This document shows positions 1,031 through 64,000 of a stretch of DNA of 64,000 bases, piece after piece. The stretch is from Chthoniobacterales bacterium (GTDB lineage: Bacteria; Verrucomicrobiota; Verrucomicrobiia; Chthoniobacterales; UBA10450): contig DATBCV010000019.1 of assembly GCA_036270275.1 (NCBI GenBank), forward strand, positions 10,883 through 74,882. The letters run 5' to 3'. A program made the position numbers and the translations under genes. The number at the start of each line of letters is the position of its first letter. Position 1 is the stretch's first letter. Under the pieces are notes generated by a model that was not told where the DNA came from, did not search any database, and was given only the letters and a program-made list of their open reading frames with translations.

Positions 1031-3883
1031 CACGTACGGCAGAATTCCGCCGTGCCGGTAATAATCGATCTCGATCGCCGTATCGATTCGCACTTTGACC
1101 GGAAAGTAGCGCTGCTTCCCGTCGGCAGTCTTGATTTCAACCGTTAAGCGCTGCCCGGGTTGCAACGAGTCCGACAAACCGTTGATCGAAAATATTTGCG
1201 AACCATCAAGGCCGAGCGATTCCGCAGTCACGCCGTCGAGAAATTGCAACGGGAGCACGCCCATGCCGACGAGGTTCGAACGATGAATGCGCTCGTAGCT
1301 CGCCGCGATCACCGCTTTCACGCCGAGCAATTTCGTTCCTTTCGCCGCCCAATCGCGCGACGAACCGGTCCCGTACTCATGACCTGCGAGAATGATTAAC
1401 GGGATTCCATCTTCCTGATATTTCATGGCCGCATCAAAGATCGACATCACCTTTCCGGTATCCGCTTTCCGGTTTCCGAAATACTTCGTCACGCCGCCTT
1501 CGGTCCCCGGCACCATCAGATTTTTAATTCGGACATTGGCGAAGGTGCCGCGCGTCATGACGAGATCATTTCCGCGGCGACTGCCGTAGCTGTTGAAATC
1601 TTCCGGCTTGATTCCGCGCGATTTTAAATATTCACCGGCCGGTGAACTTGGCTTGATCGCGCCCGCTGGCGAAATGTGATCGGTCGTAACTGAGTCGCCG
1701 AAAATACCGAGCGGCCGCGCGTTCACGATGTTGTCGATCTTGCAGGCTGCCATCGAGAAATCTTTGAAGAATGGCGGCTCGTGGATGTAATCGCTCTTCT
1801 CGTCCCATTGATAAACTTCGCCGGTGCTCGACGGGATTTCATTCCACTTCGGATTCTGATCGGCAAAGTCGCGGTAAAGTTTGCGGAAAACTTCCGGCGT
1901 GAGCGCGGATTGCATCGCGTCGCGAATTTCGGTCAGCGAAGGCCAGAGATCGCGCAGATAAACTTCGCCTTCTTTTCCTTTGCCAATCGGCTCCTTGCTA
2001 AGATCGACATCCACGCGGCCGGCGAGCGCGAACGCAACTACCAGCGGCGGCGACATCAGAAAATTCGCTTTAATGTTTTGATGGACGCGCGCTTCGAAAT
2101 TTCGATTTCCGGAAAGGACAGACGCGGCGACGAGATCGAATTGATTGATCGCCTGCTCGATGTTCGGATGGAGCGGCCCGGAATTTCCGATGCAAGTCGT
2201 GCAACCGTACCCGACGAGATTAAAACCGAGCTCGTCGAGATATTTTTGCAGCCCAGTCTTATCGAGATAATCCGTGACGACACGCGAGCCTGGTGCCAGC
2301 GAAGTTTTCACGGCGGGATCGACTTTTAATCCGCGCTCCACTGCTTTTTTCGCCAACAATCCGGCCGCGAGCATCACGCTTGGGTTGCTCGTGTTCGTGC
2401 AGCTGGTGATCGCCGCGATCAAAACTGTTCCGTGACCAATCTGACTTTGGCCGTGATGAAACGGATCCGCGCTCGTATCTTCGATTTCCTTCGCGGTATC
2501 GGGCGTCGGCCGATTCGCGATCATCTCCAATTTATTGCGCTCCTCCGCGCCTTCGACTTCACCTTGGTCCGTCGAAGGCATTTCGCCGTCAGTCGGCGCG
2601 CTCCCGTTGAGTTGGACGAGATGCTTCGCGCTAAGATCGACATCGGCTTTGCCGTAACCGCCTTCTTTCACGGGTTTTTTCAGCAACGAGCGAAATGTTT
2701 CGCCGAGCGCCGGAAGATTGATCCGGTCCTGCGGCCGTTTCGGTCCGGCCACCGCCGGTTGCACGTCGCCAAGATTCAATTCGAGATCGACCGAGTAATC
2801 GATCTCGCCTTTGCGCGGCATGCCGAACACCTTTTGCGCGCGAAAATAATTTTCAAACGCGGCGCATTGTTCGTCAGTCCGTCCAGTCGCGCGCAAATAA
2901 GCGACCGATTCGCCATCAATCGGAAAGAATCCCATCGTCGCGCCATACTCTGGAGACATGTTGCCGATCGTCGCGCGATCCGGCACAGGCAATGACGCCG
3001 CGCCGTCTCCATAAAACTCGACAAATTTTTCAACAACTTTTTGTTTCCGCAGCATCTCGGTGATGTGGAGCACGAGATCGGTCGCGGTCACGCCTTCGCG
3101 CAATTTTCCGCTCATATGAACGCCGACGACTTCAGGAGTTAAAAAGTAAACCGGCTGGCCCAGCATTCCGGCTTCCGCTTCGATTCCGCCAACGCCCCAC
3201 CCGACTACGCCGAGGCCATTGATCATCGTCGTGTGCGAATCGGTGCCGACAAGCGTGTCGGGGAAAAATATTTCCGCTTTCCGGTTCCCGCTTTCCGGTT
3301 TCGATAAAACGCCTTTGGCGAGATACTCGAGATTTACCTGGTGAACGATGCCGATTCCCGGCGGGATGAGTTGGAATGTTTTAAAGGCTTGCTGGCCCCA
3401 TTTTAGAAATTGGTAACGCTCGCGGTTGCGCTTGAATTCCATGTCGAGGTTCAACTGCAACGCGCGCGGTGAGCCGAAGAAATCGACCTGGACTGAATGA
3501 TCCACCACCAGATCGACCGGCACGAGCGGCTCAATGATTTTTGGATCGCCCTTCAGCCGTTGGACGGCGCTGCGCATCGCGGCAAGATCGACAACGAGCG
3601 GCACGCCGGTGAAATCCTGGAGGACGATGCGCGCGACGACGAATGGAATTTCCTCGTTCGCTGGTTTCTTCGCGTTCCATTTCGCCAGCGTCTCGACGTC
3701 TTTGCGCTGAACCTTTTTGCCGTCGCAATTTCGCAGGACCGATTCGAGAACGATGCGAATGCTCACGGGCAATCGTGAAATTTTTCCGACGCCTTGCTCT
3801 TCCAACGCTGGCAAGGAATATAAAAATCCTTCACGGCCGCTTCCGGCGTCAAACTTCGTCAGCGTTCTAAAGTCGTCAGTCAT
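1007..3883 (-). CDS. acnA: aconitate hydratase A
   Basis: 958 aa. The Fe-S ligand motifs [13 protein letters not shown] and [12 protein letters not shown] are present, and similarity to AcnA/IRP runs the full length. Confidence 0.95.
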
Positions 3884-3890
3884 ATTTGCA

Positions 3891-3949
3891 CCACGAAGAT
3901 CACGAAGGACACGAAGTTAACAGCATAAAAATCTTCGTGTTCTTCGTGG
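3891..3949. repeat. CACGAAG-unit inverted repeat (long imperfect hairpin)
   Basis: The left arm ccacgaagatcacgaaggacacgaag faces the right arm cttcgtgttcttcgtgg. It lies between the acnA start and the peroxiredoxin stop. There is no T-run in terminator position. Confidence 0.6.
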
Positions 3950-3958
3950 CGGAAAAAA

Positions 3959-4453
3959 TCATTTTAATTCCGCGAGTTTCGCTTTGATTTTGTTGAAGTC
4001 CGGCAGCTGCTTCGCGTCGTCATTGCTCTCGGCGTATTGGATGACGCCACTCTTGTCGATGACGAAGGCGGAACGTTTCGGGACGCCGCCCATGCCGAGA
4101 TTGATTTGCGGCAAAAAGGAATCGTAAGCGACGCCGTAATCTTTGGCGATCTTGTGCTCGTAATCGCTCAGCAAGGTGACGCCGATGCTTTCTTTTTTCG
4201 CCCACGCTTCCTGCGCAAATGGATTGTCGCCGCTGATCCCGTAGACTTCGCAGTTCAGTCCGCTGTATTCGCGCAGTCCGTTGCCGACGGAGCACATTTC
4301 TTCCGTGCACGTTCCGGTGAACGCCATCGGGAAAAACAGGAGCAGCGTGTTTTTCTTGCCGAAATTGTCGCTCAACTTGATCTGCTTCGGACCGTCGGCG
4401 GTCTTCGTGGGCAAACTGAAATCTGGCGCTTCGGTTCCAACTGCAAGTGGCAT
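3959..4453 (-). CDS. peroxiredoxin (AhpC/TSA family, 1-Cys/AhpE-like)
   Basis: 164 aa with the peroxidatic Cys motif FPMAFTGTCTEE. The N-terminus GTEAPDFSLP is typical of Prx. Confidence 0.85.
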   Translation of the reverse strand: MPLAVGTEAPDFSLPTKTADGPKQIKLSDNFGKKNTLLLFFPMAFTGTCTEEMCSVGNGLREYSGLNCEVYGISGDNPFAQEAWAKKESIGVTLLSDYEHKIAKDYGVAYDSFLPQINLGMGGVPKRSAFVIDKSGVIQYAESNDDAKQLPDFNKIKAKLAELK

Positions 4454-4652
4454 AAATAATCCTCCGGTTTGAGTTTAACGGGGGAACTTCAGTATAAGAT
4501 CGACATCTGCGCGGTCAAAAGCTTTACAGAATTAACCGCTGATTGCGCGGATGAAACAGATTCAGAAAGGCTTGCTTTCCAATTCCCTCCGCTAAATTCG
4601 CGTTATCCGCGGTTCTCTTTTCTTTGACGTGCGCTGTGCTAAACTAGCGGCC

Positions 4653-5069
4653 GATGGCAGATGATCGCTGGTGAATCGCAAGATTCGCCAGAGGAAAGTC
4701 CGAACACCATACGGCAGCATGCCGCGTAGAATACGCGGGCGGCGTTCGCGCAAGCGGGCGTTGACGGAAAGTGTCACAGAAAAGACACCGCCGGTTCTTT
4801 GAGAGAACAACTGTTCTTTTTTAGCGCAGGTAAGGGTGAAAAGGCGAGGTAAGAGCTCACCGCGCGCGGAGCAATTCGCGCGGCACGAAAAACCCCATGC
4901 GGTGCAAGACAAAACAGAGGCAGGACAGCCGGTCCGATTTAATCCTCGGGTATCGTCGCATCACTTAGACTGTAGCGGCGGTCTCTGACCGTCGATCATG
5001 GTTTAAGGGCGTTCGCCACGGCGAATGAGATAAATGATCATCCACGACAGAATTCGGCTTATCGCCATC
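4653..5069 (+). ncRNA. rnpB: RNase P RNA, bacterial class A
   Basis: The universal P4 strands are present: GAGGAAAGTCCG at 4691-4702 and ACAGAATTCGGCTTAT near 5047-5062. P1 (gatggc/gccatc), P2 (gatgatc/gatcatc) and the P3 hairpin can be drawn. GGTAAGGGTGAAA and GGTAAGAGCTCACC motifs are also present. Confidence 0.9.
4970..4994 (+). repeat. CTGTAG-hairpin repeat copy inside rnpB
   Basis: The 25-mer ctgtagcggcggtctctgaccgtcg is identical to 49418-49442. Confidence 0.85.
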
Positions 5070-5076
5070 TAAATAT

Positions 5077-5116
5077 GAAGGGCGCTTTCGGAAACGAGGG
5101 CGCCCTTCGCTTTTTT
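5077..5116 (+). terminator. rho-independent terminator after rnpB
   Basis: A 9-bp GC-rich stem (gaagggcgc / gcgcccttc) with a 14-nt loop is followed by TTTTTT. Confidence 0.8.
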
Positions 5117-5507
5117 ATTTCAAAGATTCAATCTTGCCGTTAACAGTAATTGCAAACGCTGCTGAGCGCGCCGCGTACTCGGCTTGTGCAATGATTTCCG
5201 GGAAGCATCGGGTAAATTTGTTCGCCTGCTCCCAAAAACTTAGATCGGTCCATCCGGGCTTTAGGAAAAATATTGTGTGTCCTGCTTCTCTCCATGCGCG
5301 AACCTCGTGTGGATTGCGACTGATTCGGACATCAGCCGTGATGATGACCCAACCTTCCTCTGCGGATAGAGCTTTCATCCACACGATATCTTCTTCATTA
5401 GCTCGGAATTTGTCGCGCAAATGCACGACTTCGTGATCCGGCTGGACCATTTGATTTATTCCGTGGGCAAGCTTCGCCGCGAGATTGTTATCAAAGAAAA
5501 ACTTCAC
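5115..5507 (-). CDS. DUF5615-family PIN-like protein (putative toxin)
   Basis: 130 aa with the N-terminus MKFFFDNNL...L typical of DUF5615/Mut7-C-like RNases. It overlaps the upstream DUF433 gene by 4 nt. Confidence 0.65.
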   Translation of the reverse strand: MKFFFDNNLAAKLAHGINQMVQPDHEVVHLRDKFRANEEDIVWMKALSAEEGWVIITADVRISRNPHEVRAWREAGHTIFFLKPGWTDLSFWEQANKFTRCFPEIIAQAEYAARSAAFAITVNGKIESLK

Positions 5508-6202
5508 GCGGCCAGCGCTTCTTCGAACTCAACCGCTTCACGAACGGATTTAGGGTTGATTTCGAACCAGCGCGCGACCTCGTCAATGGAACCGTTAGCT
5601 TCGGCGCTGCGGGCCAAAACCTGAGTCGGAATTCCCTCGCGGAAAATGATCGGCTGACCAAAGCTACGTTTTGGATCGAGCGCGACCTGGTGACTTCTTC
5701 CACGGGGCCACCACCGAAAAGGCACTTTCGAGCTATCGAACTCAATGTCTTTGAGAAACGGTCGGATAATTTTGTCGAATACTCGCTGAAGATCACGCAT
5801 GTCCCATAGCGTGGCTTCGTTATTTCTCTCCTGAAACTCCATGAAGATTGTTTGACCGTCCGTTGCAAAGCGGTTCGTGCAAAATGGATGTGAATGTCCA
5901 ACAACCTCGCGCGCACGATCATGGACCTGTCGCAATGTTTTCCAACTAACGCCCGCGGAAACGAATGCGTCGACACACCTAATTTCCAAAAGGTCAAGGA
6001 AACCAAGCGCCATCGCGTGATCGATCGAATCGAGTTGGCTGTTCCAAACAGCTGGCGATCTGTGGCGGCCGTGTTTCACTTTGAACTCATAACCTCTGAG
6101 CCAGCGACGAATTCTGCGAGGCGAAACGTCGGCCAAGCGCGCAGCCTCGGATACGGTGTAAATACCGGTTTGAAGCAATTCGACTTTCATACTGGCTGCC
6201 AC
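5504..6202 (-). CDS. MerR-like HTH plus DUF433 domain protein (putative antitoxin)
   Basis: 232 aa. The N-terminal HTH is YTVSEAARLADVSPRRIRRW. The C-terminal DUF433-like region is GQPIIFREGIPTQVL...SIDEVARWFEI. Confidence 0.65.
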   Translation of the reverse strand: MAASMKVELLQTGIYTVSEAARLADVSPRRIRRWLRGYEFKVKHGRHRSPAVWNSQLDSIDHAMALGFLDLLEIRCVDAFVSAGVSWKTLRQVHDRAREVVGHSHPFCTNRFATDGQTIFMEFQERNNEATLWDMRDLQRVFDKIIRPFLKDIEFDSSKVPFRWWPRGRSHQVALDPKRSFGQPIIFREGIPTQVLARSAEANGSIDEVARWFEINPKSVREAVEFEEALAA

Positions 6203-6253
6203 CTAAGGGCCAACCTTAGACGAAGTCACGGTTCAATTGCAACTCGATGGCGG

Positions 6254-7345
6254 TTAATACCCGAGAACATCGTCGAGACACGCAAGCAAATGTGAAACGG
6301 TTTCTTCGGTTTCGTCGCCCATGTTGGAGAGGCGGAATGTTTTGCCGCGGAGTTTGACGTAGCCGGGATCGATGATGAGGTGATGTTTTTCGCGGAGGCG
6401 CTTTGCAAGATCGACAACGTCGATGTTTTTGTTGTTCGCGACGCAGGTAAGCGTCTTTGATCGGAAACCTTCTTCGGCAAAGAAATCGAAGCCGGCTCGT
6501 TTTACCCAATCGTGGACGAGCGCGTTCGTTTGCGAGTGGCGCGCGTAACGCGCGTCGAGACCTTTTTCGAAGATTTCTTCGAGCTTGGATTGAAGCGCGA
6601 AGATGTGGCCGATGCTCGGCGTCGTCGGCGTCATCCAAGCTTCTTGCTGTTTTTTGAACTCGAGGAAGTCGAAGTAGTAGCCGCGATCTTTTTGTTTCTC
6701 GGCGCGGGCGAACGCTTTTTCGGAGACGCTGAAGAGCGAAAATCCCGGCGGTAGGGCGAGCGCTTTTTGCGAGCCGGTGAGCATGACGTCGATGCCGAGC
6801 GCGTCCATGTCGACCTTCATGGCGGAGAATGATGAGACGGTGTCGAGGATGAGAACCACTTCGGGATATTTGGCGAGCGTGTAGCAAATTTCCGGTAACG
6901 GATTCATGACGCCGGTTGAAGTTTCATTTTGAATCAATGTGACGGTGTCGAATTTTCCGGACGCAAGCGCGCGATCGACATCTTTGTGATCGACATGTTT
7001 TCCCCAATCGACCTGAAGTGGCTCCGAGTTTTTGCCGCAGCGTCGCGCGACGTCGAGCCATTTGTCGGAGAACGCGCCACACATGCAACAAAGCACGCCG
7101 CGATTAACCAAGTTTCGGATCGACGCTTCCATCACGCCCCACGCCGATGACGTTGAAAGAAACACTGGCTGCTTCGTGCCGAAGAGCGTTTGCAGCTTCG
7201 GATGAATGTCGCGGTAGAGATTTTTAAAATCTTCGCCGCGATGACCGATCATCGGTCGCGAGAATGCGGCCATTGTTTTGGGCGAGACTTCGACCGGGCC
7301 GGGAGTGAAAAGCTTGTCGTGCGGCTGCACGAAGCAAACGTTCAA
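6254..7345 (-). CDS. class V aminotransferase (serine-glyoxylate/phosphoserine aminotransferase-like)
   Basis: 363 aa with LFTPGPVEV at the N-terminus and the SQKAL PLP-lysine region. The start is uncertain: TTG at 7345 or GTG at 7330. Confidence 0.8.
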   Translation of the reverse strand: MNVCFVQPHDKLFTPGPVEVSPKTMAAFSRPMIGHRGEDFKNLYRDIHPKLQTLFGTKQPVFLSTSSAWGVMEASIRNLVNRGVLCCMCGAFSDKWLDVARRCGKNSEPLQVDWGKHVDHKDVDRALASGKFDTVTLIQNETSTGVMNPLPEICYTLAKYPEVVLILDTVSSFSAMKVDMDALGIDVMLTGSQKALALPPGFSLFSVSEKAFARAEKQKDRGYYFDFLEFKKQQEAWMTPTTPSIGHIFALQSKLEEIFEKGLDARYARHSQTNALVHDWVKRAGFDFFAEEGFRSKTLTCVANNKNIDVVDLAKRLREKHHLIIDPGYVKLRGKTFRLSNMGDETEETVSHLLACLDDVLGY

Positions 7346-7370
7346 CGCTCAACGCTCAACGTCCAACGCC
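7337..7370. repeat. tandem heptamer repeat (AACGCTC-like, about 5 units)
   Basis: The units read aacgttc aacgctc aacgctc aacgtcc aacgcc. The repeat spans the predicted start of the aminotransferase gene (TTG at 7345) and runs into its 5' leader. Confidence 0.8.
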
Positions 7371-7396
7371 GAAATCAGAAAATGAAGTTGTCGATC

Positions 7397-7912: not shown

Positions 7913-8009
7913 ACCAACGTTTCGTCGCGCCAACTCGCGGCGCGCGTATGGATGTCCGAGACAAATCCAACTGCGCGCTTCAGCGCGTTTTATTAGTGGG
8001 AGGAAATTT

Positions 8010-9931: not shown

Positions 9932-9943
9932 AGAGAAATTTCC

Positions 9944-54800: not shown

Positions 54801-57683
54801 GTAAGGCAAAGCCGAAATGAGGACCGTGGTCGTGCTCGTCACGCTCCGGCCGCCTTCGGCTTCAAATCCTTCCGCGATGAATCGCATCGAGTAAGTCGCA
54901 TCCGCAAAGCGCTCGAGTTGCAGATCAAACTGCGTCTGCCCCGCGCTATCGGTTTTGTTTTCGCCGAGCTCGATCGTTTGTTCGGTGCGTTCTTTCTTTG
55001 GATCGTGGAGCGGATCGAAAAAAGTGTAATCGCGGAACTCAGGAAAGGAGAAGGCCGTCGGCATCAGCTCGATTTTGGAAACGATGCGGCGCTCGGTTGC
55101 CGGTGTGCCATAGAGATTCGCGAGCGAAACAGTCGCGCGCATTTCCTTCGGCTGAATCCAACCCTTCGGCGAAGTTTGCGACAGACGAGTGTCGATCTTC
55201 ATCCGGTCGGGCAAAAATTCTTTGATGTTCGCAGTTGTGCCACCGAGAAGCGTCGAGCGTTTGCTGTTCTTAACTAGATAAACGTTGAAGGTATAGAGAC
55301 CGGTCGCCGATTCGTTCGCGGTTTGGTAAACGAAGTCGACAAAAGCGGAATCGGGTAAATTGATCTTGCGCGTTTGCACGCTGTGACCGCGCGCGTCGAT
55401 CACTTCGGTCTCGAGCGGCAAGCCTTTGAGGTTCCCCTGCCAGTTTCGTTGCTTAACGGCGAGCGCGATGTGAACTTCGTCGCCCGGCCGATAAACACCG
55501 CGCTCGGTGAAGACGAACGCGTCGAGATTTTCCGGGAGCACGCTGTCGACGCCATCAATGTCGAACCTGGAAAAGTTCAGTTGTCGATCTTCGCGCGCGT
55601 AAGGAATGAATGAAACGTCGTCACCGTTGCGCGCGACAAACGCGACCGGCAATTTTTCGCGCAGCGATTTGTCGACGGACGTGAATGCGCAGCGACCATT
55701 GCCGTCGCTCGTCGCGGTTTGCAGCGGGATGCCGTTCTTGCCGAGAAGATCGACAACCACGTTCGCGAGCGGCTTGCCTTCTTTGATCGACATCAGAAAA
55801 ACGTCGTGACTGCCGTCCGCGTTTTTCTTTGTCAGAATTCCAATGTCGGTGACGAGAATGAAACGCGAATCACGAACGTCGATTAACTTCTTCTTTTCCG
55901 GGTCCCAACCCTGCGCGCTCAGGAAAAACAGACCGCGCTCGCTGCCGCCATCGGCCGGTTTGCGAAGATGCTCGCTGAAATCGAACGCGGAATAATTGGC
56001 TTTCCATTTATTCTCCAGCGCGATGTTCTGCCGCTCGGTCGCGATGCGCGAAATATTTTCCTTGTTGAAGTACCCGGCATTCGCAAAGAGCGGCGATTCG
56101 AATTTGCCCTCAGTCTGGCTAACCAGATGATTGATCTGCGTGGTCGCGACGCGGCTGATTTCAAAGTCGATCGTGCTGAGAGCGCGCGAACGGATCGACA
56201 GCTTCTTTTCGCCATTCAATGCCAGCACTCCGCCCTCGCCTTCAATCTGGACTTCACGCGGCAATGACGGCACTGCCACGACGGCGTCGTAGTCATCGCT
56301 CAGCGGATAATCGCCCGCGGCGCGAACACCTTTTTTCACGCGCACGTAAAGCTCGCCGTCGGTCTCGACCCGAACGCGAAACGCGTGTTGTCGATCTTGC
56401 GCTTTTTCCGAGGGCAATGCTTGAAACTTGATTGATTTCGCCTCGTCGAGAATTTCATCCGGAACTGCGTCCGCGCTTTTCCAAAGCTCGACTTCTTTCA
56501 ACTGCGAGCCAATTTCTTCGCCAGATTCACTCTCGTCCGGCGTCGTTGTCGGAGTCGGTGACGCTTCGTCGGTTTCATCGGAGTTATCGACCTCTGCTTC
56601 TTTCTCTTCATCCGAGGCTTTGCGCTTCGGGAGCAACTTCAGCTCAAGCGCTTTGGCGAGATCGCGCGTGCTGATGTCGCTCGTGGTGTTAAGCACGATC
56701 AACTGCTCCGGCTCGCCGTTTTTATTTCGCGCGATCGTCGTTTCGATCGAATCGATCTTGAACATCGAAGCGACGGACGGGATTTGAACCTTTTGCTCGA
56801 GATCGGTCTTGTATTGCGCGCCGCCCTGAGCGGTGCGGACGCCTTTGTTCAAAATCAATTTCGCGAAGTCGTCCCGCTCCGGCAGCACAACCGGCGAGCT
56901 CTGGAGATAAGCCACTCGTTGATGCAAACCGAAAGTGATTTTGAAATGCGGCGCGGGATCGCTCGCGGCAAAGAGATTTGCCCCGCTAACGGTCGCGAAG
57001 CGCAGATGTCGATCCAACTCGCCCGCGTCGACCGCGTGCGTCAGCTCGATGGTCGCAGTGAGCGCTCGCTGAGTTGAATTCGCTGGGTCCTGATAAAGCT
57101 CGAGCTTTTTGATCGCGATCCCGAACGGCGGCGTCTGCGTTTCGTAAACGAAACGCTCTATTCGCACCTGGGTCGGGAAAAATTTCTTGTCGAAAATGAC
57201 TCGGAACTTCGTGTCGGCCGGCCAATCTTCGGTCGGTTCGAAAACAAGGATGTCATCCTTGATCCAGTGCCAGGCGCCGTTGAGATGCGGCCGCAGTTCG
57301 ACTCCCTGAACGCTCGGCTTTTTCAAATCTTCGAGAGGCGCCGCTGATTCGCTAAAGGAAATAATCATGCGCGGAAACTTGAGGTCCTTTTCCAACTTCG
57401 TGACTTCAATCGGCGAGATCTTCGCGGTCACTCGGTGCGGTTTCGGCAGATGCGAATACCAATTCCAGGTCCAGGCGCTCGCGCACAGAATGGCGAGGAT
57501 ACCGGGCGCGATGACTCTTGGATACGCGCGCTCGAGTCTCTTCCAACGTTCGCCGACTTGGCTAAGCCATTGTGGCGGTCGCCATGAAATGTTTCCGAAA
57601 ATCTGCGCTGCGATTCGACGGAAAAAATGGCCGGCGGCCGTGAGCGATTCGAGCGCTTTTAAAAGAGGCGCGGGAGTTTTCAT
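51822..57683 (-). CDS. bacterial alpha-2-macroglobulin (YfhM-like), thioester-containing
   Basis: 1953 aa with an N-terminal membrane anchor, the thioester motif FPYGCSEQ and the canonical pairing with pbpC. Confidence 0.9.
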   Translation of the reverse strand: MKTPAPLLKALESLTAAGHFFRRIAAQIFGNISWRPPQWLSQVGERWKRLERAYPRVIAPGILAILCASAWTWNWYSHLPKPHRVTAKISPIEVTKLEKDLKFPRMIISFSESAAPLEDLKKPSVQGVELRPHLNGAWHWIKDDILVFEPTEDWPADTKFRVIFDKKFFPTQVRIERFVYETQTPPFGIAIKKLELYQDPANSTQRALTATIELTHAVDAGELDRHLRFATVSGANLFAASDPAPHFKITFGLHQRVAYLQSSPVVLPERDDFAKLILNKGVRTAQGGAQYKTDLEQKVQIPSVASMFKIDSIETTIARNKNGEPEQLIVLNTTSDISTRDLAKALELKLLPKRKASDEEKEAEVDNSDETDEASPTPTTTPDESESGEEIGSQLKEVELWKSADAVPDEILDEAKSIKFQALPSEKAQDRQHAFRVRVETDGELYVRVKKGVRAAGDYPLSDDYDAVVAVPSLPREVQIEGEGGVLALNGEKKLSIRSRALSTIDFEISRVATTQINHLVSQTEGKFESPLFANAGYFNKENISRIATERQNIALENKWKANYSAFDFSEHLRKPADGGSERGLFFLSAQGWDPEKKKLIDVRDSRFILVTDIGILTKKNADGSHDVFLMSIKEGKPLANVVVDLLGKNGIPLQTATSDGNGRCAFTSVDKSLREKLPVAFVARNGDDVSFIPYAREDRQLNFSRFDIDGVDSVLPENLDAFVFTERGVYRPGDEVHIALAVKQRNWQGNLKGLPLETEVIDARGHSVQTRKINLPDSAFVDFVYQTANESATGLYTFNVYLVKNSKRSTLLGGTTANIKEFLPDRMKIDTRLSQTSPKGWIQPKEMRATVSLANLYGTPATERRIVSKIELMPTAFSFPEFRDYTFFDPLHDPKKERTEQTIELGENKTDSAGQTQFDLQLERFADATYSMRFIAEGFEAEGGRSVTSTTTVLISALPYVIGCKADGDLRYIDTNKTRVVDLVAVDPQLNRIALGNVTANVIAQEYVSVLTKQESGKFAYESVLKERTTKSEKISVAANGSKYDLPTNEPGNYIFELRDDQDRRLAKVQFSVVGHGAVSKSLEKNSELQVKLDREQYNSGDEIAVSITAPYAGSGLITIERDHVYAQQWFQANSASSVQHIRVPENFEGSGYVNVAFVRALDSKEIFVSPLSYGVVPFTANKEKRRLVLDVKALATAKPGEPLRISYKSDRPSKIVIFAVDQGILQVTNYKTPDPLAFYFRKCTLRVETSQIVDLIIPEFSLLRSVSAYGGGGDIQKLNPFKRVTEKPVVFWSGILDSDTTAREIVYDVPDYFDGTLKIMAVAIANDTVGSNERESLIRGPFVITPSVPVLAAPGDEFETGVTIANNVEGSGQNAEVELRAQPNDRLSIVSGSTQTLRIAEGREQTAIFKFRANEKLGSGEISFFAKANGHETKRRATLSVRPPAPYMTEIHSGSFKDKIDIKLTREMHPEFRKLEASVSAVPLGLARGLDAYLKDFPYGCSEQITSGAFCRLMLADEADFGLSRAEINKQLEHTFGILARRQNDQGAFGYWAPENGEHISFVSAYVMDFLSESKASGFVPPQEMFANGLRNLQKIVARTPQDLNDTRTLAYSIYTLTREGVITTNYILNLRDWLEKNRKEEWLRDITAVYLAGALHLLHKDADAERLIDNYKIADNKMIERWDFCQPLGTNSQYIAVTAREFPARLRKISPEQFQNILRPIGDGEFNTLSSAYAVRALKAYSHAIAQHPLELSISELHKDKIETRLVNGTKALLRADLTDKARGVRFNSAQRLTGPGAFFQIVEAGFDRNVPNEALKNGLEVYREVLGKNSEAASRTKLGEQLHVRIHVRSLNREPITNVAIVDLLPGGFEVVDSSIHTGTGSTPGVDYVDVREDRAVFFVTAPTNALEIDYQIKSDNRGNFIVPPVFAQSMYDRNLKGRGIGGKITVTE

Positions 57684-57758: not shown

Positions 57759-58379
57759 GTGAGAAGCGCAGGATTAGCCACCACGCGACGCAGTTTGGTA
57801 GATCGTCTCGCAAATTGGGACGATCAGCGACGCTGGCAGGAATTTTTCGACACCTATTGGAAATTGATTTACTCGGCCGCGCGCAAAGCAGGCCTCACCG
57901 ATGCCGAGGCGCAGGAGGTCGTGCAGGAAACGGTGATTACCGTCGCCAAGAAGATCGATAAGTTGAAATACGATCCGGCGATCGGTTCCTTCAAAGGCTG
58001 GTTGTTGCAAATCACCCGCTGGCGAATTGTCGATCAATTCCGCAAACGTCAGCCGGGCGATGCGAAACGTCCGCGCGACATCGACGACCGCATGACCGCG
58101 ACAATCGAGCGGGTGCCGGACCCGCGCGTTGTCGATCTTGACGAACTGTGGGAAAAGGAGTGGAAAGAAAACCTGTTCGAAGCGGCGATCACGCGGGCAA
58201 AAAAGAAAGTCGACCCAAAACAGTTTCAAATTTTCGATTGCTACGTGCGCAAGGAATGGCCGGCGCAGAAAGTGGCCGAGCAATTAAAGGTGAGCGTGGG
58301 TCAGGTTTATCTGGCCCGACATCGCGTGGGCGCGGTTTTGAAAAAAGAAATCAAAGCGCTCGAAAAGAAGAATCTGTAG
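57759..58379 (+). CDS. ECF-type RNA polymerase sigma factor
   Basis: 206 aa from a GTG start. Region 2 is AEAQEVVQETVITV...FKGWLLQITRWRIVDQFRKR. The region 4 HTH is LKVSVGQVYLARHRV. Confidence 0.85.
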   Translation: MRSAGLATTRRSLVDRLANWDDQRRWQEFFDTYWKLIYSAARKAGLTDAEAQEVVQETVITVAKKIDKLKYDPAIGSFKGWLLQITRWRIVDQFRKRQPGDAKRPRDIDDRMTATIERVPDPRVVDLDELWEKEWKENLFEAAITRAKKKVDPKQFQIFDCYVRKEWPAQKVAEQLKVSVGQVYLARHRVGAVLKKEIKALEKKNL

Positions 58380-58454: not shown

Positions 58455-60953
58455 TTGCCTCTCCTTCACGCTTTATGTAGAATCGCGGCCATCGAAGTTT
58501 CGGCCCAGATTCCAATCATTCCCGATCACGAATTGCTGCGCGTGATTGGGCGCGGCGCTTACGGCGAAATCTGGCTGGCGCGCACGGTGACGGGCGCGCT
58601 GCGCGCGGTGAAAATTGTTTATCGCAGCACGTTCGAAAGTGAGCGCGCGTTTCTGCGCGAGTTCGAAGGCATGTCGGCGTTCGAACCGATCTCGCGCGAG
58701 CACGCCGGATTTGTCGACATTCTGCACGTCGGCCGGACGAGCGAATATCTCTACTACAGCATGGAGCTGGCGGACGATCACGTGGCCGGACGCAAGATCG
58801 ACATCGCGCATTACGAGCCGCGAACTTTGAAGAGCGATCTCGGCCGTCACAAACGTCTGTCCGCGGCGGAATCGATTCGGCTCGGTGTTTCGTTAACGGA
58901 AGCGCTCGACGCGTTGCATTCATGCGGGCTCGCGCATCGCGACATCAAACCTTCCAATATAATTTTCACCGAAGGCGTGCCGAAATTGGCCGATATCGGA
59001 TTGGTCGCGACGAGCGGGCAACAATCGTTCGTCGGAACGGAAGGTTACGTCCCGCCGGAAGGTCCGGGCACGCCGCAGGCGGATCTCTACAGTCTCGGCA
59101 AACTTCTTTACGAAACGTGCACCGGCAAAGACCGGCTCGATTTTCCCGAGATCGATTCGCAATTGAGCCAGCGACCCGACCGCGATCAGCTGCTCCAGCT
59201 CAACAACGTTCTGGTAAAAGCATGCGCGAACGAGCCGAAGAAACGTTACAGCTCGGCCGCGGAAATGAATCGCGATTTGCTCGCGCTCGAGCGCGGCGAA
59301 CGTCCGAGAAAATCGCGCACGGGTTTGCTTCTTGCGATGTTGTCTGTCCTCGCGCTCGCGGCCGCGGGCGTTTGGTTTTGGACGCAACAAAAACAACCGA
59401 GCGCCGGCCTGCATCTGCAGACCGTAATTCGAACCGAGCCGCCCGGTGCGCTCGTCGTCCTGGGCGATCACGCGCAAAAAAGCCCGGCGAGGTTCGAAGA
59501 TCTCGAGCCGCGCAAATATAATGTGCGCATCATGGCGCCGGGTTATGATCCGATCGAAACGACTGTCGATCTCAGTCCGCGCCGCGCGCCGGTGTTGCCG
59601 GCATTTCATTTGGCGCGGAGTAAAGGCGCGCTCGAAATTCAATCGGAGCCGACCGGCGCAGAGTTTTCGATTCGCAGCGAGGACGGTCAGATCTCGCGCA
59701 ACGGAACAACGCCCCAATCGATTGTCGATCTTCCGACCGGAAAATATTCGATCGTGACGCACCGCGGCGATTGGGAAATGCGCGATGAGGTGGAAGTCCA
59801 GCGCGGTCAAAAGGCGAGTAAAGGGTTCGCCTTCGTCAGCTCGATCGCGACCATCACGAGCGAGCCGGCCGGCGCGGAGATTTCGGTGGACGGAAAGTCG
59901 ACCGGGCGAACACCGCTGCGTCTGGAGTTGCCGGCTCGCGCTCATGAATTGACCGCGCATCTCGACGGCTGGCCTAACGAACAACAGAAGATCGACATCG
60001 AACGAGGCCGCGAGAACGCGGCGCATTTCGTTTTCGCCAACGGCAGCGTGAAGATCACGAGCGCGCCGGGCGGGGCGATTGTTTTGGCTAACGGCAGGGA
60101 GCTCGGACCAACGCCCTTGGTGATCGAGGAAGTGAAGCCGGGCGAGGTGAATTACGAACTGCGCTTGAGCGGTTACAAAGCGACGACGATCAACGGCAAG
60201 GTCGAACCGCAGCAGCAAACGTTTCTTGCCGCGCGCTTGGAAAAGAGTGTCGGCCCCGCGCCGGGACAGCCGTTCACGAATTCGCTCGGGATGAAATTTG
60301 TGCCGATGGGCGACGTTCGTATTTCAATTTGGGAAACGCGCGTCCAGGATTATGGGACGTTTGTGCAAGCAACCGGACGCCGTTACGAGCCGCCCGATTT
60401 TCAACAGGCGCCGAATCATCCGATTGTGAAAGCGAACTGGTTCGACGCGCTCGCGTTTTGCAAATGGCTGACGGAAAAAGAACGCGAAGAAAACCTGATC
60501 GAAGATCGACAATCGTATCGTTTGCCGACCGATAAGGAGTGGAGCCAGGCGGTTGGATTGCCAAACGAGGCCGGTTCGACGCCGCAGGCGCGCGACGGAA
60601 AGATCAAAAACGAATTTCCGTGGGGCAAACAATGGCCGCCGCCGTCCAGCGCCGGGAATTATTCAATGTCGCAAAAGCGCGGCGGAACTTTGCCGGTCGG
60701 AAACTTCAAGGCAAACTCGTTAGGCCTGTTTGATCTCGGCGGCAACGTGTGGGAATGGTGCGCCGATACTTACAAAGGCGGAGCGAGCAGTGGCGCGGCG
60801 CGGGATTGGGGCGTACTGCGCGGCGGCTCGTGGGCGACCAAAAATCGGCTCGAAATGCAATCGTCTTATCGCAACGTGATCGATCGGAACGATCGCGACG
60901 TGATTTACGGATTCCGCTGCGTCCTAGCGCCGGAAAGTATCGAAACGCGTTAG
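58455..60953 (+). CDS. Ser/Thr protein kinase with TM helix, PEGA repeats and C-terminal FGE-sulfatase (SUMF1-like) domain
   Basis: Kinase motifs GRGAYGEIWLA and HRDIKPSNIIF are present. A TM helix lies near residue 300. There are four PEGA-like modules. The C-terminus carries GGNVWEWCADTY...LRGGSW. The start codon is uncertain (TTG at 58455). Confidence 0.9.
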   Translation: MPLLHALCRIAAIEVSAQIPIIPDHELLRVIGRGAYGEIWLARTVTGALRAVKIVYRSTFESERAFLREFEGMSAFEPISREHAGFVDILHVGRTSEYLYYSMELADDHVAGRKIDIAHYEPRTLKSDLGRHKRLSAAESIRLGVSLTEALDALHSCGLAHRDIKPSNIIFTEGVPKLADIGLVATSGQQSFVGTEGYVPPEGPGTPQADLYSLGKLLYETCTGKDRLDFPEIDSQLSQRPDRDQLLQLNNVLVKACANEPKKRYSSAAEMNRDLLALERGERPRKSRTGLLLAMLSVLALAAAGVWFWTQQKQPSAGLHLQTVIRTEPPGALVVLGDHAQKSPARFEDLEPRKYNVRIMAPGYDPIETTVDLSPRRAPVLPAFHLARSKGALEIQSEPTGAEFSIRSEDGQISRNGTTPQSIVDLPTGKYSIVTHRGDWEMRDEVEVQRGQKASKGFAFVSSIATITSEPAGAEISVDGKSTGRTPLRLELPARAHELTAHLDGWPNEQQKIDIERGRENAAHFVFANGSVKITSAPGGAIVLANGRELGPTPLVIEEVKPGEVNYELRLSGYKATTINGKVEPQQQTFLAARLEKSVGPAPGQPFTNSLGMKFVPMGDVRISIWETRVQDYGTFVQATGRRYEPPDFQQAPNHPIVKANWFDALAFCKWLTEKEREENLIEDRQSYRLPTDKEWSQAVGLPNEAGSTPQARDGKIKNEFPWGKQWPPPSSAGNYSMSQKRGGTLPVGNFKANSLGLFDLGGNVWEWCADTYKGGASSGAARDWGVLRGGSWATKNRLEMQSSYRNVIDRNDRDVIYGFRCVLAPESIETR

Positions 60954-61460
60954 TTATTTCGCGGCGAGGATTTCGAGGAGACGATCGAGAAAAGGAATTT
61001 GCGCGGGATTCAATTTGCGTCGCGCGATTTCATCGGAGAAAAACTCGGCGCGATCGACTTCCGGAAATTCTCGAAAGTTTCCCGAGTGCGGCGGGAACTC
61101 GAGTTGGAACGTGTTCGACTTCAGCTCGAAATCTTGCGGCAAGTCGCCTTCGAACGCCCATGCGTGAACGGTTTTGCCGCCTTTTTGTTTGATTGAACCG
61201 AGCGGGATCCAATTGCCCGAAGGTTTGTTCCCCAATTCCTCTTCAAATTCAATCTGCGCGCGCGCCAACAAATCTTCGCCGGGCTCAACTTGTCCCTTCG
61301 GGATCGACCACGCGCCATCATCTTTGTTTTTCCAAAACGGTCCGCCGGGATGAACGAGAAGAAATTCGACAATGTCGATCTTTGGCCGCCGAAACATTAG
61401 AAGCCCGGCGCTGACGTTGCTGGTTTTCTTTGGCTTCTGCGACGCGGGCGGATTCACCAC
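60954..61460 (-). CDS. NUDIX hydrolase
   Basis: The Nudix box is GQVEPGEDLLARAQIEFEEELG. The conserved SAGLL N-terminus requires a GTG start at 61460 or 61457. The remainder of the 268-aa track ORF is unlikely to be coding. Confidence 0.8.
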   Translation of the reverse strand: MVNPPASQKPKKTSNVSAGLLMFRRPKIDIVEFLLVHPGGPFWKNKDDGAWSIPKGQVEPGEDLLARAQIEFEEELGNKPSGNWIPLGSIKQKGGKTVHAWAFEGDLPQDFELKSNTFQLEFPPHSGNFREFPEVDRAEFFSDEIARRKLNPAQIPFLDRLLEILAAK

Positions 61461-61495: not shown

Positions 61496-62410
61496 TTAGC
61501 GAATTACTCCGAGCGAACCGAGCGTCGCCGCGTCGACAGTGTAAGTGATTGGGAGTCGATGATCGCTTTGATATTGTCCGATCGCGGCGCGAGTTTGCGC
61601 GCCCATTCGGCCGTCGATCGCGAAATTGTAATAACCTTGTTGCTGCAACGCGACCTGCGCACTGGCGATGATTTGTTCGGGCGTGAGGTCGCCATCGCCA
61701 TAGATCGGCTCGTTGTAGCCGTAATAAGAATACGAATCGTAACCCCAGGCCGGATACCACCAGCCGTCAGACCAACCCCACCAACCCCAGTCCCAGAAAA
61801 TGAAGGTGACGCAATGATGCCGCCACCAATCGTGATCGTGATGGTGACGCAAGTTGTTCAGATGATTTTGGCGCGCCTGATTCGCGCTCGAAACGTTTCC
61901 GTTCCAATTGCGCAAACGCGCGGAGCTTTGCGGATCGAGTTTGTGTTTGGCCGCGAGATTGATCGCTCCCGCGTGTTGCGAATTCCCGCCGGTCCGAAGA
62001 TTGCCGCGATTGAGTCGCGTAATTGCGGCGTTTGCCTGAACATTGCCGCTCTTGCCATGGATCGCGGTTGCGTTCGTGTTGTTCGCGAAATTTGCATGCG
62101 CGGAACGTTGCACGCCAGAACCTGCCACCGCCGGATAATTGAAAGTGCGCTGCCCATTTTTGTAGGTCACGGTCGGCCGATAGATCGACATCGGCCGCGC
62201 GCCTTGCGAAATTCCGTTTCCAAAATGTTGAACGCCGCTCAAATGTGGCGCGCCGGCGCTCGGAGTGGCCGGGGCGGAGCCCGATGAGCTGTGGACCGCC
62301 GGGGCGGAATTGCCACCGCCACCACCATGATTGTTGCCTCCAGCTAATGCGGAGAGCGCCGAGAACGCGAGCGCGGCAACGACAACAACGTATGGATTTT
62401 TCATAAACAC
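61496..62410 (-). CDS. secreted protein with a Trp/His-rich segment and a C-terminal peptidoglycan-binding domain
   Basis: A signal peptide and a Gly/Asn-rich region are followed by HHHDHDWWRHH...WDWGWWGWSDGWWYPAWGY. A PG_binding_1-like region QQGYYNFAIDGRMGAQTRAAIGQYQ ends the protein. Confidence 0.6.
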   Translation of the reverse strand: MFMKNPYVVVVAALAFSALSALAGGNNHGGGGGNSAPAVHSSSGSAPATPSAGAPHLSGVQHFGNGISQGARPMSIYRPTVTYKNGQRTFNYPAVAGSGVQRSAHANFANNTNATAIHGKSGNVQANAAITRLNRGNLRTGGNSQHAGAINLAAKHKLDPQSSARLRNWNGNVSSANQARQNHLNNLRHHHDHDWWRHHCVTFIFWDWGWWGWSDGWWYPAWGYDSYSYYGYNEPIYGDGDLTPEQIIASAQVALQQQGYYNFAIDGRMGAQTRAAIGQYQSDHRLPITYTVDAATLGSLGVIR

Positions 62411-62465
62411 GACCTCGACAATGAAACCATTGTAGCGTGCTTTGGTTGCGCTTTGCTACGGTGAT

Positions 62466-64000
62466 TTATGCCGCGCTCGGCGCAGGAAGTTCTTTTTCTC
62501 GAGAGCCTGCGTCCTTTGGGCTAAAGCTTCGCCAGTGTTCCAACGGCAAACTCGCCGCGGTGATCAGCGCGAGTTGACTAATCATGAAGCCGAGCAGCCA
62601 CGGAAACGCTTTCTGCATGAAGCCGTAGGAATGCAGACCGACGCCGAGCATGTTAACGCCGAACCACGAGAAACTCGTCACGATGTTTCCAAAAATCGCC
62701 ATCACCATCAGTCCACGTTGCCGAATGAATCCGCCCCAGCGCGCGTGCAAAACGATCGCGCACCAAAGCACAATGAGCACCGCGCCGTTTTCTTTCGGGT
62801 CCCAACCCCAGAAACGTCCCCACGATTGATCGGCCCAGATTCCACCGAGCACGGTGCCGACAAAACTGAACAACGTCGCAAAACAAACGACGCCGTAAGT
62901 CATGCGCGCCAATGAGTCGGCCGTTTGCTTTGTCAGCGAGCGCGTGAACACACCACGCACGACGTAAATGATCGCGAGCATTCCGGCGAGAAACATCGCG
63001 GAGTAACCGGTGGTGATCGCGACCACGTGCGTCGCGAGCCAAATATTTGTGTCGAGCACCGCTTGCAACATTTCCAGCGTGTCGCCACTGCCTGCGAGAT
63101 GATGAGCGATGATCAAAGTGACAAAACCGATCGCCCCGGCGCAGGCCGCTCCGATTCCATCGCGAAAGATTCGTTCCAGAATCAAAGCGACAATCACGGC
63201 GCCCCAGCCGATGAAAATTGCGGATGAATAAAGATTCGTGACCGGGGGCCGTTCCTGCAGATACATGCGCGCAAACAGGCCGAAGCTGTGGATCATCAGC
63301 GCGAGGACCAGGAAATAGAACGCGGAGCGATTCAAGGTGCGGTTCCAAACAAGCCAGGACGTGCACGCGAGGAGAAATGCGAGCAGATAGATCGCCATGC
63401 TTTGGCTGAATGGCTGCAGGCGATTAAAGAGAAACTCGAATGACGCCCGCTTCACCACGTTCGGCTGCTCGTTGGCGAAAAATTTCGCGGCAAGATCGAC
63501 ATGTTCGTTGAAGCGCGCGTGATCTTTCGCGCGATACGCATCGCCGATCAGCGCGTATTCTTTGACGATGGGATGAATTTCTCCGGTCGCGACCGAGTGA
63601 AGCAAGCTGTCACCGATCGAATGCCAGTCGCTCTGCCCTTTCACAGGCGGAACGGCGAGGATGTAGGCCATCTCGGAAAGCTTCTCGTATTTTTGAATCA
63701 ACTCGACGACTTCGTTGAGCTTCTCATCGTCGAATTGTTCGCCTTGCTGATGTTGATGAGCGGCTTTCGCGGCCTCCGGCACGGCGGCGATGTAAAATTG
63801 AAGCTCACCCGCGTAATTTTGACTGCCTTCGAGCTGCACGCTGTTCTTCAGGCGTTCGTAAAGCGTGAGCGCGTTCCGCAAATTCAGGATCGCGGTTTGA
63901 AACGCGGAACGCTGGACCGCTTCGAGTTTGTCCGCCTGGTCGCCTTGTTCCTGAATTTGTTGAAGGAACTGCGCGAGTTCCGTGAAGCTGAAATATTTCC
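62466..64000 (-). CDS. ccsA: cytochrome c biogenesis protein CcsA/ResC-type (5' end lies outside the window)
   Basis: The WWD haem-handling motif WGRFWGWDPKENGA is present and the protein is polytopic. The reading frame stays open upstream of the track start (TTG at 63881) to the window end. Confidence 0.8.
   Translation of the reverse strand, partial: KYFSFTELAQFLQQIQEQGDQADKLEAVQRSAFQTAILNLRNALTLYERLKNSVQLEGSQNYAGELQFYIAAVPEAAKAAHQHQQGEQFDDEKLNEVVELIQKYEKLSEMAYILAVPPVKGQSDWHSIGDSLLHSVATGEIHPIVKEYALIGDAYRAKDHARFNEHVDLAAKFFANEQPNVVKRASFEFLFNRLQPFSQSMAIYLLAFLLACTSWLVWNRTLNRSAFYFLVLALMIHSFGLFARMYLQERPPVTNLYSSAIFIGWGAVIVALILERIFRDGIGAACAGAIGFVTLIIAHHLAGSGDTLEMLQAVLDTNIWLATHVVAITTGYSAMFLAGMLAIIYVVRGVFTRSLTKQTADSLARMTYGVVCFATLFSFVGTVLGGIWADQSWGRFWGWDPKENGAVLIVLWCAIVLHARWGGFIRQRGLMVMAIFGNIVTSFSWFGVNMLGVGLHSYGFMQKAFPWLLGFMISQLALITAASLPLEHWRSFSPKDAGSREKELPAPSAA

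Follow-up and report, generated by a model that had tools for sequence, protein, structure and literature searches.

Why does a single word of ten nucleotides recur dozens of times in an ordinary piece of bacterial chromosome? The word is AAGATCGACA, and the piece is a stretch of 64,000 nucleotides from a soil Chthoniobacterales bacterium (Verrucomicrobiota; NCBI GenBank assembly GCA_036270275.1, contig DATBCV010000019.1, positions 10,883 to 74,882), which is treated here over its whole length as the window. The first part of the answer can be given with high confidence: AAGATCGACA is very probably a real, lineage-specific word that acts at the level of DNA and is kept by drive or by selection. 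The second part, what the word does, is held more loosely. DNA uptake is the function that we infer from its genomic pattern, and with a chance put a little short of even AAGATCGACA would be a word like the DNA uptake sequences (DUS) of the Neisseriaceae and the uptake signal sequences (USS) of the Pasteurellaceae, spread by biased transmission through natural transformation.

The window contains 48 exact copies of AAGATCGACA, 24 in each orientation (0.75 per kb), and the recount agrees with the figure reached by eye in a first-pass annotation of the same DNA. Dinucleotide-preserving shuffles of the window contain 0.24 copies on average and never more than 1, and the expectation under Markov models of order 1-4 is 0.2-0.9. 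The full motif can be written [A>T]AGATCGACA[A/T](C); it is asymmetric and 11-12 bp long, with the 10-mer as its core. Among 195 copies, position +1 is A or T in 94% and position +2 is C in 56%, and this is the whole extent of the flank conservation that had been described earlier as weak. Beyond +2 the information content of the flanks falls to about zero, except for a C that recurs every 3 nt because of codon phase. Nine more copies in the window keep AGATCGACA behind another first base, eight of them with T and one with G, and T at position 1 is the most frequent one-mismatch variant (15 observed, 0.28 expected). The 8-mer GATCGACA has 75 window copies, and the two 8-mer near-copies that had been pointed out at 6971-6993 are present. 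A count over 258 kb of word-bearing DNA gives 196 exact matches and 112 with one mismatch, the latter against about 33 expected; in these the central T-C-G is nearly invariant (3, 1 and 1 variants) and the outer positions tolerate change. After AAGATCGACA is masked no other hyper-abundant word is left in the window. The copies follow no regular spacing, the coefficient of variation of their gaps being indistinguishable from random placement in 8 loci (Stouffer z = 0.7).

The plainest explanation would be an artefact, in which the copies follow from a common peptide motif, from codon usage, from base composition or from the remnants of dispersed repeats. Most copies do fall in three frames, encoding VDL, KID and DRQ. 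Of the window copies 41 are genic and the remaining 7 lie wholly or partly outside called genes, about 8% of the sequence being non-coding; the genic copies read xVDL (17), KIDx (11), xDRQ/H (9) or something else (4), so that three of the six frames contain 37 of the 41. The way in which these tripeptides are encoded argues against such an origin. VDL occurs 26 times in window genes where amino-acid composition predicts 6.9, KID 15 times against 2.8 and DRQ eight times against 2.9, an over-representation of 3-5 times in the window proteins. No fewer than 17 of the 26 VDL are written as GTCGATCTT, where codon usage predicts 0.8; 12 of the KID are AAGATCGAC (1.5 expected) and all eight DRQ are GATCGACAA (0.3 expected), the synonymous encodings being almost unused. 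The tripeptides are therefore in excess because of the word, and not the word because of the peptides, which excludes both the peptide-motif and the codon-usage explanations. Three frames are used on both strands, seven window copies are intergenic, and Markov models up to order 4 predict less than one copy. The frames and the encoding together sustain the earlier proposal that selection or drive acts on a DNA word and not on a peptide. The word acts on the DNA level, and its spread has altered codon choice, and even amino acids, in housekeeping proteins.

Repeats and misassembly fare no better as explanations. Unlike REP elements, MITEs and other dispersed repeats, the word shows no longer shared unit and no insertion, the lone longer repeat that contains it being a 54-nt pair described below; the unconserved flanks and the lack of indels in an alignment of the aconitase gene bear out the first-pass view that the copies do not derive from a mobile element. 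A separate assembly, the JGI metagenome contig L247, is 99.96% identical to window positions 1-10301 and keeps all nine copies there, so the word is not an assembly artefact. L247 came to light through an exact match to ribosomal protein S9 of the window; BamA and ArgH of the window have no exact entry on record. The population of the window is also represented in JGI metagenome 3300036803. An origin in peptides, composition or dispersed repeats is refuted by the Markov counts, the frames, the flanks and the tripeptide encoding taken together, and retains virtually no probability.

A strand-polar chromosome signal of the Chi, KOPS (FtsK-orienting polar sequence) or architecture-imparting (AIMS) type would be short, over-represented and lineage-specific, as AAGATCGACA is and as is typical of such words in general. 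These signals are replication-polar, shorter (5-8 nt) and sparser, in contrast to the non-polar word found here. Its copies are divided 24 to 24 in the 64 kb, and the orientations in 32 independent loci agree with a binomial of 50:50 (chi-square 32.9, 32 degrees of freedom, p = 0.42); a polarity of 80:20 would have raised the chi-square to about 103. This fit excludes polar signals of the Chi, KOPS and AIMS types, and extends to 32 loci what had been argued from the equal counts of the window. Compared with Chi in E. coli, it has more nucleotides and is roughly five times as dense. Relative to the genes that contain them, 22 window copies are sense and 19 antisense. The polar-signal explanation is effectively refuted by the balanced orientation counts and is left with hardly any probability.

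How far the word extends was followed in 80 loci of related species around the aconitase gene, a locus being taken as word-bearing at three or more copies and at least 2.5 copies per 10 kb. AAGATCGACA is the top 10-mer in 11 of the 80 loci and passes the density threshold in 14, reaching a maximum of 17.8 per 10 kb; it stands at background level in most others. The AAGATCGACA lineages share an aconitase-DUF2071-TPR block, which is followed by differing genes. Scanning metagenomes for pairs of copies close together yielded 120 loci, 69 of which combine 52-60% G+C with extra copies and come from many soil metagenomes and from unrelated genomic positions. These 69 fragments carry 292 copies in 480 kb (0.61 per kb), excluding the pair by which each was found. 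In one set of soil Chthoniobacterales lineages the word has risen over the whole chromosome to about 0.6-1.8 copies per kb, which is the range of density in the related loci and metagenome fragments.

The same loci show that the word is held in place. In the 14 word-bearing loci 62 of 92 aligned window sites (67%) are kept, against a baseline of 13% for identity of all aligned 10-mers, and the conservation of the word among relatives that the first-pass annotation had proposed to test is thereby seen. In the 66 other loci, which are of similar divergence, 53 of 324 sites (16%) are kept against a baseline of 11%, and two protein-constrained sites account for 46 of those 53. Conservation of this limited kind shows active maintenance of the word, through selection or drive, in certain lineages but not in close relatives of theirs. 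The codon alignment of aconitase reveals how it arose: word-bearing lineages have the exact word where their relatives sit 1-3 mismatches away, and there are no indels. Most of these conversions are synonymous, and one changed amino acids, from HIT, HIK and similar to KID. The word has spread by point substitution at pre-existing near-matches and not by insertion. The three outcomes that had been named beforehand as fatal to the claim (no wider enrichment, a conserved longer unit, a peptide in a single frame) are not what was found.

Two features lay outside the earlier annotation: a second word, unrelated to the first, in related lineages, and the coexistence of the two words in some genomes. 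The 9-mer GCCTAACGA is hyper-abundant, at 2-7 copies per 10 kb, in many other Chthoniobacterales loci (L055, L057, L064, L015, L250 and L253 are examples). Its orientation is likewise balanced (114+/108-) and its flanks are unconserved; GCCTAACAA and GACTAACGA are enriched variants. In GCCTAACGA-rich lineages 35% of its sites are kept against a baseline of 12%, and elsewhere 3%. The window itself has three copies against 0.3 expected, at 8882-8890 (-), 59972-59980 (+) and 60717-60725 (-). In an aconitase tree, which is approximate, being a single-gene neighbour-joining tree of tblastn-defined genes, GCCTAACGA is the more widely spread, AAGATCGACA occupies a patchy subset of a lower-G+C clade, and a Udaeobacter-like clade lacks either word. 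Both words occur at high density in L018, L254 and four large contigs of the metagenome Ga0070741, whose two-word loci are L128, L134, L137, L165, L171, L182 and L186. In L018, L254 and the four large contigs AAGATCGACA stands at 10-20 and GCCTAACGA at 2-10 copies per 10 kb, together about 2% of the DNA, and over all the two-word loci the range of AAGATCGACA is 10-26; no third word is present in the two-word genomes, only one-mismatch variants of GCCTAACGA.

Among known signals, the closest parallels are DUS and USS, which a 2025 survey describes as words of 9-10 nt with hundreds to thousands of copies per genome, at most about 2% of the DNA, and with some half of these copies in terminators, often as inverted pairs. 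Measured against these figures, the density of 48 copies and their 24/24 orientation support the resemblance to DUS and USS that had been suggested from the window. Like the DUS of Neisseriaceae, which are recognized by the minor pilin ComP, the word is asymmetric, 10-12 bp long, present at about one copy per kb and up to about 2% of the genome, equal in its orientations, both genic and intergenic, biased in frame and lineage-specific in form; it lies in core genes and may, as they are, be missing from recently acquired DNA, for which a 4.6-kb segment of L254 is the one example here. Unlike those DUS, it has an unrelated sequence in an unrelated phylum, no association with terminators or inverted pairs and, within the small sample searched, no ComP-like pilin, and the second word is not a dialect of 1-3 nt difference: it is unrelated and can share a genome with the first. 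With the USS of Pasteurellaceae it has in common a core of 9-10 bp with weaker flank preference, a mostly intragenic location in tolerated frames, encoded tripeptides that are over-represented in the proteome and some nearly invariant core positions. Perfect and one-mismatch copies stand at about 2:1, similar to the USS of H. influenzae with about 1471 perfect and about 750 one-mismatch copies. It differs from USS in its phylum, in the lack of AT-rich phased flanks and in a spacing that is no more even than random.

Asymmetry, density, balanced orientation, genic and intergenic placement with a frame bias, proteome imprint, spread by substitution and maintenance tied to lineages with dialect-like variation together make up the signature by which DUS are defined on the genomic level in the survey. 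On the reading as a DUS/USS-like word, double-stranded fragments with the word would be bound at the cell surface by a DNA receptor, which probably sits on a competence pilus, and the bound fragments would pass through ComEC to be recombined by RecA. The word-free 4.6 kb of L254, next to 21 copies in 16.5 kb, the lack of a word-rich contig in a scan of viral contigs and the ComEC homologue of the clade would fit this reading. Word-carrying alleles would thus replace word-free ones, and the word would accumulate by molecular drive and mark DNA as 'self'. In the sister lineages a system of this kind would have GCCTAACGA as another specificity. Both words in one genome would then need two receptors or a recent switch of specificity, and the way in which words are gained, lost and sometimes combined among close lineages would imply modular or interchangeable receptors. 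For a force that can alter amino acids of conserved enzymes, over what would be thousands of redundant sites, biased transmission appears more plausible than selection site by site. To our knowledge, sequence-biased uptake in natural transformation is the sole demonstrated mechanism of biased transmission of this kind. Orientation-neutral hyper-abundant words fall into two known classes, DUS and USS, for which the link to transformation is direct, and the highly iterated palindrome HIP1 of cyanobacteria, for which the link has been made by recent reports.

Several observations weigh against such a role. In 16 word-bearing loci 82% of copies are wholly intragenic, and the terminator placement typical of DUS and USS is absent; partners within 60 nt are inverted for 11 of 202 copies and direct for 26 of 202. 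The copies are spaced as unevenly as random placement would make them. Known dialects lie a few bases apart, but here two unrelated words are dense together in some genomes. We know of no demonstration of natural transformation in Verrucomicrobiota. Neither the window nor 756 kb of word-bearing DNA yielded a pilin, PilQ, PilT, DprA or ComEA gene; pieced together from several genomes and equal to about one tenth of a single genome, this sample is too small for absence to be concluded. The occurrence of comEC does not follow that of the words: six GCCTAACGA-lineage contigs have it intact, as do the word-free L255 and Candidatus Udaeobacter, whose loci examined carry neither word, and L254, the sole AAGATCGACA-rich contig in which comEC was found, has the gene frameshifted. 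As an observation apart, the tightest word pairs, with gaps of 6-26 nt, are L018 4093, L014 9368, L022 4923, L018 8856 and L017 20545, and all are direct.

Competence genes were among the things that the first-pass annotation had proposed to search for. A ComEC homologue with the full domain set (DUF4131, Competence and Lactamase_B) is present in the clade; eight contigs with it were traced, six of a GCCTAACGA lineage, one word-free and one with both words. Pilin, PilQ, DprA and ComEA, which stand on the same list, were not found in the small 756-kb sample. Phmmer searches of that DNA with twelve E. coli seeds (dam, hofQ, hofM, dprA, ycaI, hofC, hofB, ppdD, yggR, ybaV, yhgH and yifB) gave no match, in a sample too small to show absence, and a prepilin-motif regular expression gave none on word-bearing DNA, a sample too small to be informative. 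The contig with both words, L254, is Ga0467040_0000001 of JGI 3300044827, and its comEC lies at 10001-12290. A single frameshift in a T-run near 11080-11095 splits the gene into open reading frames (ORFs) of 372 and 348 residues; apart from this it aligns over its full length with intact homologues, and three recorded contigs (NCBI, JGI and Logan) give the same truncated product. The gene has no AAGATCGACA inside it and 21 copies around it. Footprints of VDL, KID and DRQ in 229 ComEC proteins are no marker of word-rich genomes, and there are none even in the comEC of L254. A PilC-like platform gene (T2SSF) adjoins a gene for an Lhr helicase in L255 (3755-12301) and L010 (832-6306), followed in L255 by a RarA/MgsA gene and comEC; this region could be a small DNA-uptake gene neighbourhood of the Chthoniobacterales.

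A different kind of drive would need no uptake at all. In a ratchet of methylation and mismatch repair, modification or nicking would bias the repair of near-matches towards the exact word, as has been proposed for HIP1 (GCGATCGC), an 8-bp palindrome that matches methyltransferase recognition sites and is quasi-periodically spaced. Such repair-driven drive fits the rise of the word, its spread by substitution and its effect on proteins equally well. AAGATCGACA contains GATC overlapping TCGA and has the invariant centre T-C-G, and it resembles HIP1 in reaching about one copy per kb, in having spread by substitution without indels, in the GATC inside it, in its conservation in coding and non-coding DNA and in its patchy phylogenetic distribution. 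It is unlike the palindromic HIPs in being asymmetric, 10-12 bp long and randomly spaced. Neither AAGATCGACA nor GCCTAACGA equals its own reverse complement, and the sister word, which contains neither GATC nor TCGA, behaves identically with no palindromic core. Moreover, one-mismatch neighbours are about threefold enriched, not depleted, and only 75 of the 534 GATC sites of the window lie inside the word, so that the methylation-linked alternative raised in the first-pass annotation, to which the GATC core gave rise, is weakened. Pfam scans of the window found no methyltransferase and no Vsr- or MutH-like gene. We know of no DNA methyltransferase with a recognition site as long as 10-12 bp, which also weighs against a ratchet. 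HIP1 itself is now reported to enhance transformation, which also counts against a ratchet without uptake, and this explanation is judged unlikely.

The copies could also form a binding-site array for a chromosomal protein, such as a nucleoid protein, a segregation factor or a global regulator, with ordinary selection at each site. An asymmetric word of 10-12 bp with an invariant core would suit a DNA-binding protein, conservation in certain lineages is expected if the protein is confined to them, and in the 16 word-bearing loci there is a mild intergenic excess, 17.5% of copies not being fully in called genes against 10.6% of the sequence. Against this, genes hold over 80% of the copies, whose arrival has altered both the codons and the amino acids of conserved enzymes, spacing is random, and orientation is unrelated to genes or replication. 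Close relatives have a wholly different word, or none. The force needed at each site would, moreover, far exceed plausible selection on one of several thousand redundant sites, which is the classical argument made for USS. An array of this kind is accordingly given only a small share of the probability.

A further family of explanations keeps biased transmission or self-marking and replaces transformation by another route: a packaging signal of a gene-transfer agent or DNA-secretion system, or a label that protects self DNA from a defence nuclease. Such a signal would be orientation-neutral, genome-wide and lineage-specific, as the word is, and the word is depleted in a phage-like island and in viral contigs. 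The island is the 4.6 kb of L254 at 16560-21119, which has 0 copies against 21 in the adjoining 16.5 kb, a single example. It holds small ORFs and a phage-type DNA primase/helicase (AAA_25; phrog_2597, E = 4e-56), and probably represents a mobile element that has integrated there. The scan for closely spaced pairs, run on 2.9 million viral contigs, found no word-rich one, only local tandem pairs in unrelated sequences. This explanation has no positive support, and no gene-transfer-agent, type IV secretion or defence genes were found among the Pfam-scanned genes of the window. No packaging or self-marker system is known to us with a word of 10-12 bp at about one copy per kb, and we consider such a signal very unlikely.

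The window in which these copies lie is ordinary core chromosome of a soil Chthoniobacterales bacterium. The nearest genomes are metagenome-assembled genomes (MAGs) from soil of the same order, with a top aconitase match of 92% amino-acid identity. Pfam scans of about 50 window genes identified aconitase, prolyl-tRNA synthetase, ribosomal proteins S9 and L13, ribosome recycling factor and RpoN, together with BamA/Skp, UvrD, a class A penicillin-binding protein, alpha-2-macroglobulin, argininosuccinate lyase and Ser/Thr kinases; no pilin or competence gene was among them. A cluster unusual for a bacterium, at 19131-24750, contains genes of HTTM/vitamin-K-dependent gamma-carboxylase-like, animal-haem-peroxidase-like and DUF4135 (LanM-like) type, and two neighbouring genes of the proteasome-subunit family (PF00227) occur at 41694-43426 beside peptidoglycan amidase and binding genes. 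In the tetranucleotide composition of the window CTAG (observed/expected 0.08), GTAC (0.15) and TATA (0.15) are avoided, and CGCG (3.3), GCGC (2.8), TCGA (2.8), AATT (2.5) and GATC (2.2) are in excess; the avoidance of GTAC might be a reflection of a restriction system.

The exact matches to AAGATCGACA were placed on the called genes as follows, the sign giving the orientation of the word. The aconitase gene (1007-3883, -) has 1437-1446 (+), antisense, MSIF, which is kept in 12 of 14 word-bearing relatives; 1732-1741 (-), sense, KIDN, where word-free relatives have HIT, HIK and the like; 2000-2009 (+) and 2633-2642 (+), both antisense, DVDL; and 3584-3593 (+), antisense, VVDL. The copy at 4496-4505 (+) is intergenic, in the gap between a peroxiredoxin gene and the gene for RNase P RNA (bacterial class A, 4653-5073 (+), 208.6 bits), which it precedes by 148 nt. 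It is followed by 6407-6416 (+) in a class-V aminotransferase gene (antisense, VVDL) and by four intergenic or upstream copies: 7389-7398 (-); 8702-8711 (+), 6 nt upstream of a TPR_21 gene; 11111-11120 (-), directly after a CAP-domain gene; and 11405-11414 (+), upstream of the prolyl-tRNA synthetase gene proS. The peptide readings of the first-pass annotation are confirmed, with the reservation that its MSI at 11405 lies in an ORF judged spurious, and this copy is counted as intergenic. Next come 13205-13214 (+) in a small ORF (13063-13347; sense, EDRQ), 15588-15597 (-) at the 5' end of an amino-acid-kinase (UMP kinase-like) gene (PRST) and 17759-17768 (-), intergenic between rpoN and a dciA-like gene.

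Two copies belong to the longer repeat mentioned above: 18090-18099 (+), in the dciA-like gene (sense, KIDI), and 20655-20664 (+), intergenic. The word opens each copy of this 54-nt direct repeat (18088-18141 and 20653-20706, 93% identity), whose copies, one at the 3' end of the dciA-like gene and one intergenic, flank an outer-membrane-protein gene (OMP) and an HTTM gene; a third, partial copy lies at 19518-19546 within the HTTM gene. Further along, 22342-22351 (-) is in a haem-peroxidase-like gene (antisense, IVDL), and the argininosuccinate lyase gene has two antisense copies, 29622-29631 (-), HVDL, and 30438-30447 (-), NVDL. ORF 31391-32800 has 32079-32088 (-), antisense, LSIL. A gene for an FAD oxidoreductase carries 33222-33231 (-), sense, KIDN, and 33601-33610 (+), antisense, LVDL; 34505-34514 (+) is in an alpha/beta hydrolase gene (sense, KIDI), 35131-35140 (-) in an MqnC/CofH-like radical SAM gene (antisense, YVDL) and 36987-36996 (-) in bamA (antisense, YVDL). 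The DUF3108 gene has 39316-39325 (+) at its extreme 5' end, KDRH, and 39924-39933 (+), sense, KIDI. The latter had been listed one nucleotide early, at 39923, the single slip among the 48 recorded starts.

The peptidoglycan-related genes carry 40469-40478 (-), in a peptidoglycan-binding gene (sense, QDRQ), and 40931-40940 (-), near the 3' end of an amidase gene (sense, KDRQ). A LysM gene has 43724-43733 (+), sense, KIDM; 46529-46538 (-) is near the 3' end of a dehydrogenase gene (sense, KDRH), 49372-49381 (-) at the 5' end of a uvrD-like gene (ARST) and 50769-50778 (-) in the PBP1 (penicillin-binding protein 1) gene (sense, KIDI). In the alpha-2-macroglobulin gene the antisense copies are 52080-52089 (+) and 53913-53922 (+), both IVDL, and 54732-54741 (+) and 55746-55755 (+), both VVDL; its sense copies are 53294-53303 (-), KIDI, 55190-55199 (-), KIDT, 55582-55591 (-), EDRQ, and 56389-56398 (-), QDRQ. 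The remaining copies are 58130-58139 (-) in an ECF (extracytoplasmic function) sigma factor gene (antisense, VVDL); 58794-58803 (+) in a Ser/Thr kinase-PEGA-FGE gene (sense, KIDI); 59723-59732 (-), antisense, IVDL, 59988-59997 (+), sense, KIDI, and 60502-60511 (+), sense, EDRQ, in Ser/Thr kinase genes; 61373-61382 (-), intergenic; and 63492-63501 (+) in a cytochrome c assembly gene (antisense, HVDL). The variants with another first base are TAGATCGACA at 19254-19263 (+), 24155-24164 (+), 26377-26386 (+), 28207-28216 (+), 43023-43032 (-), 44618-44627 (+), 48310-48319 (+) and 62181-62190 (+), and GAGATCGACA at 59564-59573 (-). Their number had been given correctly as nine, with two starts misplaced (24165 for 24155 and 43024 for 43023).

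What is new here is the phylum, the sequences, the missing association with terminators and the presence of two unrelated words in one genome; the genomic behaviour is that of DUS and USS. Full-text searches turned up neither word nor its reverse complement as a genomic signal, only in primers and the like, in agreement with the remark in the first-pass annotation that it knew of no described signal with the sequence AAGATCGACA, and they gave no report of uptake sequences or natural transformation for Verrucomicrobia, Udaeobacter or Chthoniobacter. The 2025 survey names two proteobacterial families, Neisseriaceae and Pasteurellaceae, as the sole ones with known sequence-specific DNA uptake, and HIP1 of cyanobacteria has recently been proposed as a third case. 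Two unrelated words per genome have no counterpart among the DUS and USS dialects of that survey, and bear on how specificity originates and switches. Soil Chthoniobacterales may possess a new form of sequence-specific self-DNA recognition in gene exchange that uses at least two unrelated words, AAGATCGACA and GCCTAACGA, a serious possibility to which we nevertheless give less than even credence. If it is true, this would be the first system of the DUS/USS type outside Proteobacteria and the first evidence of natural transformation in Verrucomicrobiota, and as a third or fourth independent example it would suggest a wider spread of self-DNA recognition in gene exchange than has been assumed.

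Even if uptake is not involved, a force that rewrites codons and amino acids of housekeeping genes about once per kb has to be explained. The density of the words is easily scored for any MAG, which opens the hunt for the receptor to phylogenetic profiling; it would also help to place metagenomic contigs in their lineages and to recognize foreign DNA. Soil Chthoniobacterales are among the most abundant uncultured soil bacteria, and a word spread through uptake would be a sign that active, species-restricted recombination takes place in soil bacteria that are beyond the reach of cultivation.

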